NCBI GenBank assembly: GCA_010093995.1
Contig: ML992501.1
Coordinates: forward strand, 392,227-456,226
Length of the DNA: 64,000 bases
Direction of reading: 5' to 3'
Source of the DNA: Elsinoe ampelina
Taxonomy: Eukaryota
In this document: piece by piece, positions 1-36,863 of the stretch
How positions within the stretch are numbered: the stretch's first letter is position 1
Layout: each line of letters begins with the position of its first letter
The notes under the pieces: model-generated
Told to the model about the DNA's origin: nothing
Database searches by the model: none
What the model saw: only the letters and a program-made list of their open reading frames with translations
Program-made: the position numbers and the translations under genes

Positions 1-2792
1 CTGTGCGCCATGGGAACACGATTCAACTCTTTCTACCACGAGGAAATGCACCCCTTCGTCGACGCCATGGTAGGACTTCTTGTCGAGTCTGGTAATCGAG
101 CCCGGCGACCTGGGATAGCCGACCGATTTCTCCGGGCTGACCGCCAACGATACGATCGCGATATTGCCCTGCTCCAAAAGACTGCCATGGACTTGATCGA
201 GGACCGCCGGAAGAACCCGACTGACAAGCCTGACCTTCTCAATGCCATGTTGAAAGGTCGAGATCCCAAGACCGGTGAAGGCTTGACGACTGACTCGATC
301 GTCAACAATATGATCACTTTTCTGATTGCTGGGCACGAGACTACTAGCGGTCTGTTGTCTTTCTTGTTCGTCGAGTTGCTCCAAAACCCCGATGCCTATC
401 GCCGCGCTCAAAAAGAGGTAGACCAGGTGGTTGGCACTGCTCCCGTCACAGTTGACCAAATGTCCAAGCTGCCGTATTTGACGGCCTGCTTGAGGGAAGC
501 CCTGAGACTTCATCCGACGGCACCTGGATTCACGGTCTCGGCAAAAGAAGACGAAGTCATTGGTGGCGAATACATGATGAAAAAGGGTCAGCCAGCTCTA
601 TGCTTCCTCCCAAAAATCCAGACCGATCCTGAAGTCTACGGTGACGATGCGAACAAGTTCAGGCCAGATCGGATGATGGACGAGAACTTCGCCAAACTAC
701 CACCAAATGCATGGAAGCCATTTGGTAATGGCATGCGAGGATGTATCGGTCGACCATTCGCCTGGCAGGAGGCGCTATTGACTGTCGCTTTATTGCTACA
801 GACCTTCGATTTCACGCCTAGCGATCCCAACTACCAGCTCAAGATTCAATCGACCTTGACAATCAAGCCGAAGGACTTTCACATGCGGGCCGCTATGAGA
901 CGACCAGATGCCATCAGCAATATGTCGTTCGGACGAGAAGCCGATCATGCCAAAGAAGCCACCAAACAACGTCAAGGCAAGGCGACTGGTGGACCAGGAA
1001 AGGATGCGCCTACGTTATTCATCTTCTATGGATCCAACACTGGTAGTTGCGAGTCACTGGCCAGCTCTCTGGCATCGGAAGCCGCAGCTCATGGCTTTAA
1101 CAGCAAAGTCGACATTCTCGACAAGGCTACGGACTCTCTGCCAAAGAGTCAACCGACTGTCATCATTACTGCCAGCTACGAGGGCCAACCACCGGACAAT
1201 GCAGGTCGTTTTGTAGGCTGGCTCGAAGACGAGAAGGCTTCACTACCAGATGTCAAGTATGCTGTCTTTGGCTGTGGCAATCGTAAGCTGAAACATTCCA
1301 CCATTGCGCACCCTTGCTAATCCTGGCAGGTGACTGGGTTAGTACCTACCAGAAGATCCCTACCCTCGTTGACGACATTCTCGCCAAAAGAGGTGCCCAT
1401 AGACTTGCGGATCGAGGTTTTGCAGACGCGAATGACGGCGAGATCTTCAATGCTTTCGACAAGTGGACGGACGACCTTCTGTGGCCTGCACTCCAGAATG
1501 AGTATGGTACTACCACAGTGACCTCTGAGGAGGAAGACCTTGGTCTCAACGTCAAGATCGAGACGACTGGCCGTTCGACTCGATTGCGGCAAGACTTGCA
1601 ATCCGCAATGGTGACAGAAAGTCGACTGCTCACAGCCTCCGGCAAGCCTGCGAAGCGTCACATTGAGCTACAACTACCAACAGGAGCCACATACAAGGCC
1701 GGCGATTATCTGGCCGTGCTTCCATTGAACCCTATCGGTGCTGTTCGCCGCGCGATGGCCAGATTTCAGCTTCCATGGGACGCGACCATCGAGCTCGAAG
1801 AGGCCGCAAAAACTACCATCCCAACAGGTCGTCCAGTCTCCGCCTTTGATGTCCTCTCCGCGTTCGTCGAGCTCAGCCAACCCGCCACAGCGAAACAGCT
1901 CCGATCCGTAGCCGACACCATCCCCGACGTCACCCAAGCCTCCTCCCTCCGTGACCTCGCCGGGCCCAACTTCTCCACCATCCAAACCCAAAACATCAGC
2001 CTCCTCGACATCCTCGAACGCCACCCCACCGCCACCTTCACACTCGGCCAATTCCTCGCCGCCCTCCCCGCCATGCGCACCCGGCAATACAGCATCTCCT
2101 CGTCCCCACTCGCCTCCCCCACAAAAGTAACCCTCACCTACTCCGTCCTCGACGCCCCCTCCCTCAGCGCCCCCACCCACCCCACCGACCCCAACATCTC
2201 CACCACCTCCCCCACCACCCGCCGCCACCTCGGCGTCTGCTCCACCTACCTCTCCAACCTCCAACCCGGCGACGTCATCCAAGTCGCCCTCCGCCCTTCA
2301 CACACCGGCTTCCACCTCCCTCTCGACGCCAGCAAGCCCATCATCATGGCCTGCGCAGGGACAGGCCTCGCTCCGTTCCGCGCCTTCGTCCAGGAGCGAG
2401 CGGAGAAGATCCGCGGAGGTGCAAAGCTGGGACAGGCATTGCTGTTCTACGGCTGCAGGAGTCCAGACGAAGACGATCTGTATCGGGAGGAGATGGAGAA
2501 GTGGGAGCGCGAAGGGGCGGTGAGTGTGCGGCGGGCGTACAGTGCGAAGAAGGAGGAGAGTGAGGGGTGTGCGCATGTTCAGGATCGGATTTGGAGGGAG
2601 AGGGGCGAGGCGGTGGAGTTGTTTAGGCAGGGGGCGGGGTTGTATGTTTGTGGGTCGGGGAGGGTGGGGAAGAGTGTCGGGAATGCGATTGTGGAGATTC
2701 GGAAGGAGAGTCGCGGGGTGGGGGAGGAGGAGGCGAGGGCGTGGTTGGATGAGATTAGGGGGGAGAGGTATTGGGCTGATATCTTCTCGTGA
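1..2792 (+). CDS. CYP505: Self-sufficient cytochrome P450/NADPH-P450 reductase fusion (CYP505/P450foxy family), 5'-truncated by the window edge; exons <1..1282 and 1330..2792
   Basis: P450 motifs AGHETT, ExLR and heme FGNGMRGCIG; flavodoxin YGSNTG; FAD/NADPH RQYSISSS and GTGLAPF; C-terminus RYWADIFS. Intron 1283..1329 (GTAAGC...GCTAAT...CAG) joins the two ORFs as GCGNR-DW. Confidence 0.95.
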
Positions 2793-2975
2793 ATTGGCGC
2801 GGGCGTAGTAGTTGGGAAGGCTTGGTGGGATAGATAGAGATAGAGCTTTATGAAATGTTGACGATTTCATGAGGCAAGGCTATCTGTCGTTAGATTCGTT
2901 GAGAGAGCTGGTAGGTCAGCTAGATCGCCTTTTTGCAGGACATAGCCTAAGGCTGCGCTGCAGGGCTCCAAGCCG

Positions 2976-36200: not shown

Positions 36201-36863
36201 ATGGCTGTTGCGAAGGCGCAGTATGTCATTTCGGAGATTACGTCGATCCTTATGAGTAGGGGTATCAAGGTGAGGTTTGCGATTCATCCTGTCGCGGGGC
36301 GGATGCCGGGGCAGTGTAACGTGTTGCTTGCTGAGGCGGGGGTGCCGTATGATGGTAAGCTGGCTTCTCTGGGCGAGGTTGCGAGGTAGACTGACTAGCG
36401 CAGTCGTGTTCGAAATGGATGAGATCAATGACGACTTTGCGGATACGGACCTGACGCTCGTCATTGGAGCTAGTGAGTATCTTTTGTATACATCTGAGAT
36501 GAGTATGCTGATGATGGGCAGATGACACGGTCAACCCGATCGCCAAAGAGCCCAATTCGCCTATCGCCGGCATGCCGATTCTGGAAGTTTGGAAGTCGAA
36601 GCAAGTCATTGTAATGAAGCGAGGAATGGCTTCCGGCTATGGTAAGAATCATCGTATCGATACTGTTGATTCCCACTAACAAGGTGTAGCTGATGTACCA
36701 AACCCGCTGTTCTACAACCCACGAACGAGGATGCTTTTCGGCGATGCTAAGGACACTGTTGACAGTGAGTCTTTCGAGGAGGATCTGTTGTTGATCAAGC
36801 TAATGCGAAGCAGAAATCAAGACGGCACTTGAGAAGAATACCATGTCTGCATTGGATATCTAA
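33224..36863 (+). CDS. NNT: Mitochondrial proton-translocating NAD(P) transhydrogenase, single chain dI-dII-dIII; exons 33224-33323, 33373-36137, 36186-36354, 36404-36472, 36522-36641, 36690-36764, 36814-36863
   Basis: [72 protein letters not shown] and [11 protein letters not shown]. Six GT-AG introns restore the frame. The first exon (presequence) is inferred. Confidence 0.93.

Follow-up and report, generated by a model that had tools for sequence, protein, structure and literature searches.

Strand-asymmetric mutagenesis usually appears as a skew of a few per cent, or else it emerges when rare variants from thousands of sites are pooled. At bacterial oriC and in mammalian skew domains, the G-C skew jumps upward at a point, and the G+T-rich strand points away from it. 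Here, seven domains in which the + strand is extremely rich in C (and A) and then flips to being extremely rich in G (and T) were investigated in a stretch of 64,000 nucleotides from the fungus Elsinoe ampelina (assembly GCA_010093995.1, contig ML992501.1, forward-strand positions 392,227 to 456,226), referred to below as the window and numbered from its first letter. Unlike origin-associated skew jumps, these domains are 100-1000 times shorter, far larger in amplitude, spaced at 5 kb and located within genes.

The closest described system is the gradient reported for yeast by McLean and Tirosh (PMC3315797), in which the gene-averaged skew is C-biased at the start of genes, intermediate in the middle and G-biased at the stop. 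The Elsinoe domains resemble this gradient in that upstream C bias on the coding strand gives way to downstream G bias, with fourfold-degenerate sites, amino-acid use and untranslated regions (UTRs) included; its cause was not established in the yeast paper. However, the two halves of an Elsinoe domain (its arms) are discrete, adjacent, approximately 0.4-0.5 kb long and saturated at silent sites, and four long genes hold both arms within their last 0.7-1.4 kb. Furthermore, AT skew is uniform in the yeast paper, whereas in the Elsinoe domains A follows C and T follows G. The domains do not appear to be simply the yeast start/stop gradient.

Two further systems share features with the domains. 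The mutagenesis of single-stranded DNA at meiotic hotspots described by Hinch et al. 2023 (PMC7615360) is similar in its mirror-image arrangement, its C>G, A>G and C>A changes, its kilobase scale and its off-centre maxima. It differs in that the polarity in Elsinoe is reversed, the composition has reached equilibrium instead of showing a slight excess of rare variants, and the domains are tied to gene ends. Transcription-associated mutagenesis in yeast (PMC6063437) is comparable in that lesions on the non-transcribed strand are bypassed by insertion of C, giving N>G changes that are raised by R-loops. That work concerns reporter genes in repair mutants; it has no two-arm structure, and natural genes are not known to be rewritten. 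A literature search for such domains in fungal nuclear genomes, those of Dothideomycetes included, turned up only the yeast gradient (PMC3315797). The words skew and AT-rich do not occur in a review of E. ampelina (PMC8295512), and 'GC skew' in PMC7403616 denotes GC enrichment, not strand skew. The domains are regarded here as an extreme, domain-like and previously undescribed form of a known, unexplained intragenic skew.

Location and strength of the domains

Segmentation was performed on the + strand with a four-state hidden Markov model (HMM), and gene models were built for this analysis from open reading frames (ORFs), Pfam matches and splice signals; domain counts describe this one 64-kb window and not the genome as a whole. 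All seven C-to-G domains proposed in a first-pass annotation of the sequence were recovered, with coordinates agreeing to about 50 nt (Table 1). Six were called by the HMM as a C-rich segment followed by a G-rich segment with a gap of 0-640 nt between them, and the seventh, in the BCKDHA-like gene (about 6430-7150), was weaker and visible in the codon analysis only. The extreme blocks that the annotation had described were present at all seven places, and its switch points all lay within about 25 nt of the centres computed as minima of the cumulative skew.

In 300-nt windows across positions 1-37000, GC skew ranged from -0.88 to +0.71, with absolute values above 0.4 in 80 of 735 windows; in 200 triplet shuffles no window exceeded this value, and the extremes were -0.36 and +0.33. 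G+C was 0.60-0.68 inside the domains as against 0.52 elsewhere. The arms extended for 286-540 nt (about 0.3-0.55 kb), after which background composition resumed, and were separated by a mixed central zone 0-640 nt wide. Along the silent-site profile, the outer edges climbed over approximately 100-150 nt to a first plateau of 12-15 C per 15 codons, followed by a crossover of 60-640 nt and a second plateau of 10-15 G per 15 codons, with third codon positions forming long runs of C and then long runs of G or T.

The seven domains fell within 36 kb at a spacing of about one per 5 kb, with none in 20.3-35 kb. As had been claimed, the order was C then G: seven C-to-G switches were seen versus one G-to-C switch (7150-7204), which is the junction of the adjacent domains in the convergent BCKDHA-like and MAK5-like genes. 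No shared motif was seen at the seven switch centres on inspection by eye.

An assembly artefact was ruled out, as independent RNA contigs were identical over the amidohydrolase and COQ5 domains. These spliced contigs, from two other studies, covered 17343-18848, 19241-19993, 17298-17548, 17891-18902 and 19261-20118 with no differences. The runs concerned (X3 and X4) were taken as RNA solely from the GT..AG splice joint of their contigs (14810 to 14860), which is absent in DNA contigs. The RNA contigs were unstranded, and their depths were not used for ranking expression.

Base preferences at silent sites, in non-coding DNA and in proteins

The skew persisted at both fourfold-degenerate and non-coding sites, where its disappearance had been proposed as a refutation, and was stronger at fourfold sites than at others. 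Fourfold sites carried C 0.75 (up to 0.94), G 0.07, A 0.11 and T 0.07 in the pooled C arms (909 codons), and G 0.72 (up to 0.87), C 0.09, A 0.09 and T 0.10 in the pooled G arms (812 codons), compared with C 0.31, G 0.21, A 0.23 and T 0.26 in the background (4188 codons). The values were C 0.74-0.86 then G 0.48-0.80 in domain 1, and C 0.62-0.70 then G 0.60-0.61 in the weaker domain 2. Among twofold sites, pyrimidine-ending codons carried C at 0.96 in the C arms and T at 0.71 in the G arms (background C 0.60), and purine-ending codons carried A at 0.71 in the C arms and G at 0.91 in the G arms (background G 0.63). As sites open to transitions only thus take A over G in the C arm and T over C in the G arm, it is skew, not GC content, that is maximised. 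Introns and 3' flanks inside the domains were also skewed, albeit in small samples: counts were G22/C4 in one intron, G75/C22 in the first 200 nt downstream of the COQ5 stop and G25/C5 in the first 60 nt downstream of the CYP505 stop. Taken with the composition of the arms, this argues for a strand-specific bias of mutation or fixation.

The pattern was the same in both arms when read on the strand that runs 5' to 3' away from the domain centre (strand X). On this strand G greatly exceeds T, which exceeds A and C; G has been gained and C and A lost, which requires A>G, C>T and pyrimidine>G changes. Such changes are of the kind produced by deamination or base loss in single-stranded DNA, followed by a translesion polymerase inserting C opposite the lesion.

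Several simpler explanations were considered. As the annotation had argued, silent positions flip mid-gene, which neither a uniform one-way transcription bias nor codon preference can explain. Codon optimisation was ruled out, since A-ending Gln, Lys and Glu codons prevail in the C arms and T-ending codons in the G arms. Plain GC-biased gene conversion, which would drive all silent sites from A or T to G or C and leave no skew, was ruled out by the twofold values of A 0.71 and T 0.71. Neighbour-copying or slippage into homopolymers was ruled out by eye, Gly in the C arm of the NAD(P) transhydrogenase gene (NNT) being encoded by GGC. In favour of amino-acid composition as a seed, outgroup CYP505 and MAK5 proteins have an amino-acid-implied skew of the same sign. 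Such seeding was nonetheless rejected as a general rule, as the NNT C arm has G-type amino acids and upstream stretches of MAK5 that are equally skewed by amino-acid composition carry no domain.

The effect on proteins differed from gene to gene. NNT departed from conserved outgroup residues at 17/280 and 5/103 positions in the arms versus 43/533 upstream, and its amino-acid sequence, as judged by this comparison, is kept within the domain. The amino-acid-implied skew was -0.31/+0.51 in the CYP505 reductase part versus -0.09±0.05/+0.34±0.06 in 39 outgroups, and -0.21/+0.53 in the MAK5 helicase versus -0.12±0.05/+0.38±0.06 in 53 outgroups, shifts of approximately 2-4 standard deviations (sd) beyond the outgroups. 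In domain 4, inside an orphan ORF, skew was present at all three codon positions (-0.5/-0.6/-0.8, then +0.86/+0.6/+0.95). With NNT fixed, CYP505 and MAK5 shifted and the orphan skewed throughout, the pressure is general and is restrained by selection to differing degrees.

The distribution of the domains was examined in relatives. A DNA contig of a related organism showed 494 differences within 13700-18853. Within 19066-20495, a piece that is almost wholly the COQ5 domain, it showed 142. Both pieces were about 10% diverged, with a balanced substitution spectrum. A relative lacking the domain would differ at most silent sites, so divergence of only about 10% means that the COQ5 domain is common to both. 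Among 80 metagenome loci (441 kb) encoding transhydrogenase relatives, mostly 65-77% identical, no C- or G-rich segment was found in the gene, indicating that the feature belongs to the lineage and not to the gene. Elsewhere in these loci, a C-to-G pair was present in only two distinct loci and a G-to-C pair in one, all weak and of promoter/UTR type. Over the NNT segment, protein identity was 100% in E. ampelina, 90% in E. australis, 87% in Sphaceloma murrayae and 78% in Myriangium duriaei.

Gene ends and possible sources of the asymmetry

The annotation had held the domains to be independent of gene strand. This observation proved uninformative, as a C-then-G pattern is its own reverse complement and the same order is automatic in + and - genes. 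Seven of the 14 domain edges lay no more than 65 nt from the host gene's start or stop codon (P between about 2e-4 and 2e-3), and it was therefore concluded that the domains are not independent of genes. The G arm ended within 65 nt of the stop codon in five of the seven domains. The two promoter-facing edges began 37 nt before the first ATG of the amidohydrolase gene (17335) and 22 nt before that of COQ5 (19146), near the starts of the respective RNA contigs (17298/17343 and 19241/19261), and a promoter region was crossed by none of the seven domains. A C arm stood at the gene start only in two short genes. It began approximately 0.3 kb downstream of the start in the orphan and 0.9-2.3 kb downstream in the four long genes, where it adjoins the G arm.

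There are three settings in which strand X would be expected to be unpaired: as the lagging-strand template flanking an origin, as the non-template strand of transcription leaving the centre, and as a nascent strand that becomes displaced while repair synthesis proceeds from a break at the centre. Each domain can be read as the equilibrium reached under a strand-asymmetric mutation pressure that has acted for a long time, and the source of this pressure is tentatively placed, at somewhat below even chances, in co-transcriptional exposure of the G-rich strand followed by translesion repair. This source is favoured because the domain edges track transcription units, with the G arm mostly adjoining the 3' end. 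The coding strand in the 3' arm would be the unpaired non-template strand of sense transcription, probably within R-loops towards the end of the gene. Its complement would be unpaired in the 5' arm, during antisense transcription starting in or beside the 3' arm. As G-rich RNA gives stable hybrids, each arm would reinforce itself. Constrained proteins would change at silent sites only, and loosely constrained ones would shift in amino acids too. The G arms are transcribed, according to the unstranded RNA contigs, and are G-rich on the coding strand, as is characteristic of R-loop-prone GC skew; the same would hold for the C arms only if antisense RNA exists. The required chemistry has precedents, since Rev1/Pol zeta insert C opposite abasic sites, yielding N>G on the damaged strand, and loss of RNase H or accumulation of R-loops specifically raises mutations that start on the unpaired non-transcribed strand (PMC6063437). 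At human hotspots, the changes with a strand asymmetry on single-stranded DNA are C>G, A>G and C>A (PMC7615360).

A number of observations weigh against co-transcriptional exposure. Sense transcription crosses every C arm without making the coding strand G-rich, so the model needs exposure to depend on hybrid stability. Silent sites of the NNT C arm are saturated with C although the overall skew is only -0.15 to -0.38 and the amino acids are G-type, which argues against a purely sequence-driven feedback. Two of the seven domains finish 232 and approximately 470 nt before the stop codon instead of at the 3' end, and in the long genes the sequence at the 5' end is not C-rich. Domains are absent from the FtsJ-like, RabGAP and phytochrome genes, though RabGAP is transcribed. 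Finally, arms of equal length and strength would arise more naturally from one central event.

Such a central event is provided by meiotic recombination. The domains could be footprints of stable intragenic hotspots with breaks in the central zone, an explanation that we consider unlikely but still a serious rival; the asymmetry would then come from a new strand displaced in a D-loop (displacement loop), or from strand-directed repair of heteroduplex, mirrored on both sides. The adjacent, symmetric arms of 0.3-0.55 kb and the width of the central zone match the scale of repair synthesis and the width of hotspots. Hotspot density in yeast is similar to one domain per approximately 5 kb. Moreover, hotspots that include coding regions have been reported in another Dothideomycete (PMC5844332), and the same mutation classes are seen at human hotspots (PMC7615360). 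In the AT-rich half of the window, dinucleotide ratios of the repeat-induced point mutation (RIP) type indicate that sexual cycles have occurred, although the sexual stage of the species is rarely seen (PMC8295512).

The polarity, however, is opposite to the signature of a resected 3' tail, in which exposure on the left-hand side of the break affects the forward strand (PMC7615360). In the window, depletion affects the - strand to the left of the centre and the + strand to its right; at silent sites, strand X, as the exposed strand, has lost C and A in mirror image on the two sides. Strand X is thus not the resected 3' tail of a central break, and break repair would fit only if the damage fell on the newly made, displaced strand. 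The coincidence of domain edges with gene ends, and the lack of any domain on a promoter, likewise speak against hotspots. Promoters are the usual hotspot site in fungi without PRDM9. GC-biased conversion alone is excluded as the hotspot mechanism by the twofold sites going to A or T, and such conversion is weak or absent in Zymoseptoria (PMC5844332).

Replication origins and break-repair synthesis had both been named in the first-pass annotation as forms of a fixed, two-sided, strand-asymmetric process. The general idea of a two-sided process is consistent with adjacent mirror arms of similar length; its specific forms fared less well, with a resected tail having the opposite polarity and origins fitting in polarity only. 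If the switches were bidirectional origins, the G+T-rich strand would be the single-stranded lagging-strand template, and a C-to-G change on the + strand is the upward skew jump expected, as seen at all seven switches; the exposed-strand signature would also fit. However, the asymmetry fades 0.3-0.55 kb from the centre instead of extending replicon-wide, seven origins would lie in 36 kb at about 5-kb spacing followed by none in 20.3-35 kb, all domains are inside coding sequence with edges on gene ends, and absolute skew reaches 0.88, far above origin-associated values. Origins are therefore considered an extremely improbable source.

The composition might instead be selected, the C/A-rich half pairing with the G/U-rich half as an RNA or DNA hairpin, or G-quadruplex (G4) or pause elements being maintained near gene ends. 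Complementarity of the arms (C with A, G with T) and the location of G arms near 3' ends would suit such a role. It is nonetheless very unlikely, as unrelated housekeeping genes are hit and the NNT genes of other fungi lack the feature. The best 60-nt arm-to-arm complementarity was 33-39 of 60 positions, inside the range of within-arm triplet shuffles in all seven domains (shuffle maxima 33-40). G runs and G4 motifs on strand X were not consistently above within-arm shuffles: runs of at least four G were within 2 sd in nine of 12 arms, the departures being about 3 sd higher in MAK5_L, about 2 sd higher in COQ5_R and about 2 sd lower in CYP505_L, and G4-motif starts exceeded 2 sd only in MAK5_L. 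The shuffle tests thus gave no support for selection of an inter-arm hairpin or of G4 motifs and G runs.

Stated more broadly, Elsinoe may have fixed intragenic sites at which chronic two-sided exposure of single-stranded DNA, through back-to-back sense and antisense R-loops or recurrent break repair, drives unconstrained bases to one letter; this is possible, though on the whole rather unlikely. If so, each domain would be a heritable, kataegis-like scar, such sites would be mappable genome-wide from sequence alone, and a lineage-specific change in the handling of hybrids, abasic sites or breaks would be indicated. As single loci are saturated, one genome sequence displays where the process acts, over what width, with which polarity and with which base preferences. 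A co-transcriptional cause would make the domains a natural system for R-loop- and antisense-linked mutagenesis and for the fungal C-to-G gradient, and a recombinational cause would reveal stable intragenic hotspots together with a strand-specific bias of conversion or repair. In either case, the amino-acid composition of weakly constrained proteins is dragged along by the domains. Scans for codon usage or selection would give distorted results in these fungi, and gene callers could be misled by stop-free frames on both strands.

Host genes and neighbouring sequence

The first 37 kb of the window are gene-dense with a G+C of 0.52-0.54, and the remainder is AT-rich. Pfam matches identified a P450-reductase fusion, a 2-oxoacid dehydrogenase E1, a DEAD-box helicase, an FtsJ methyltransferase, a RabGAP, an amidohydrolase, a COQ5/UbiE methyltransferase, a phytochrome-type histidine kinase and an NAD(P) transhydrogenase. 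The domains and their host genes are listed in Table 1.

Table 1. Coordinates of the seven skew domains. Arms are given on the + strand; the last column gives the end of the arm that is G-rich on the coding strand, relative to the stop codon (+, past it; -, before it).
Domain	Extent	Host strand	Host gene and evidence	C-rich arm	Mixed zone	G-rich arm	Switch (first-pass value)	G-arm end, nt (stop codon)
1	1872-2845	+	Last 0.97 kb of P450-reductase fusion (CYP505-like); HMM, codons, Pfam (p450, FAD_binding_1, NAD_binding_1)	1872-2391		2392-2845	2391 (2400)	+53 (2792)
2 (weaker)	6430-7150	+	3' end of 2-oxoacid dehydrogenase E1 (BCKDHA-like); Pfam (E1_dh)	about 6430-6814		6815-7150	6814 (6810)	-5 (7155)
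3	7204-8104	-	Last 0.9 kb of DEAD-box helicase (MAK5-like); on its coding strand, C arm then G arm	7204-7570	7571-7746	7747-8104	7746 (7750)	+6 (7210)
4	11258-12216	-	Inside lineage-restricted orphan ORF 11197-12540	11258-11704		11763-12216	11762 (11740)	-61
5	17298-18548	+	Most of amidohydrolase gene; HMM, codons, Pfam, RNA contigs	17298-17682	17683-18008	18009-18548	17830 (17850)	-232 (18780)
6	19124-20315	+	Entire COQ5/UbiE methyltransferase gene; HMM, codons, Pfam, RNA contigs	19124-19495	19496-19982	19983-20315	19862 (19850)	+40, further patch to +195 (20120)
7	35013-36389	+	Inside NAD(P) transhydrogenase (NNT) gene	C-leaning 35013-35828 (HMM segment 35013-35298)		35936-36389, two short introns within	35828 (35830)	about -470 (about 36862)

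The orphan ORF that hosts domain 4 encodes 447 aa with clear third-position periodicity, and its composition is almost wholly set by the skew domain. It had no Pfam family and no atlas match, and a comparison with 1.84 billion representatives returned only a 99% identical protein (itself) and one 43% match over 112 residues. The stop codons of the convergent BCKDHA-like and MAK5-like genes are separated by 55 nt (7155-7210), and given this gap their 3' UTRs must overlap. In place of the 212 nt between the amidohydrolase and COQ5 genes (18853-19066), the related organism has an unrelated sequence of 201 letters; the genes on either side align at about 90%. In two related species, the NNT orthologue goes under the name '26S proteasome regulatory subunit rpn-8' in its source, which is probably an annotation slip, as it contains only transhydrogenase Pfam domains.

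Stop-free frames of up to 498 aa are open inside the skew domains on both strands and in several phases: 35034-36530 (-), 19191-20513 (-), 17551-18501 (-), 7690-8286 (+) and 11272-11889 (+). No Pfam match was obtained for those tested. All such frames result from the composition of the domains, and annotation could mistake them for genes. Isolated, one-armed G-rich or C-rich patches with a skew of 0.35-0.57 were also seen (25027-25232, 16801-17000, 12851-13100 and 26751-27100), some adjoining gene ends, such as that directly after the RabGAP stop at 16867. These patches may represent the same polarity in its ordinary, weak form.

The phytochrome-type histidine kinase gene (27341-31444, +; PAS_2, GAF, PHY, HisKA, HATPase_c) forms one open frame of 4.1 kb and has no skew domain, indicating that long intron-free exons alone do not attract domains. 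The AT-rich block (37061-64000; G+C 0.28-0.36) begins about 200 nt after the transhydrogenase stop codon. Its dinucleotide ratios, with TpA/ApT of 1.94 and (CpA+TpG)/(ApC+GpT) of 0.22 as against 0.56 and 1.27 in the gene-rich part, are typical of RIP and hence point to past sexual cycles.

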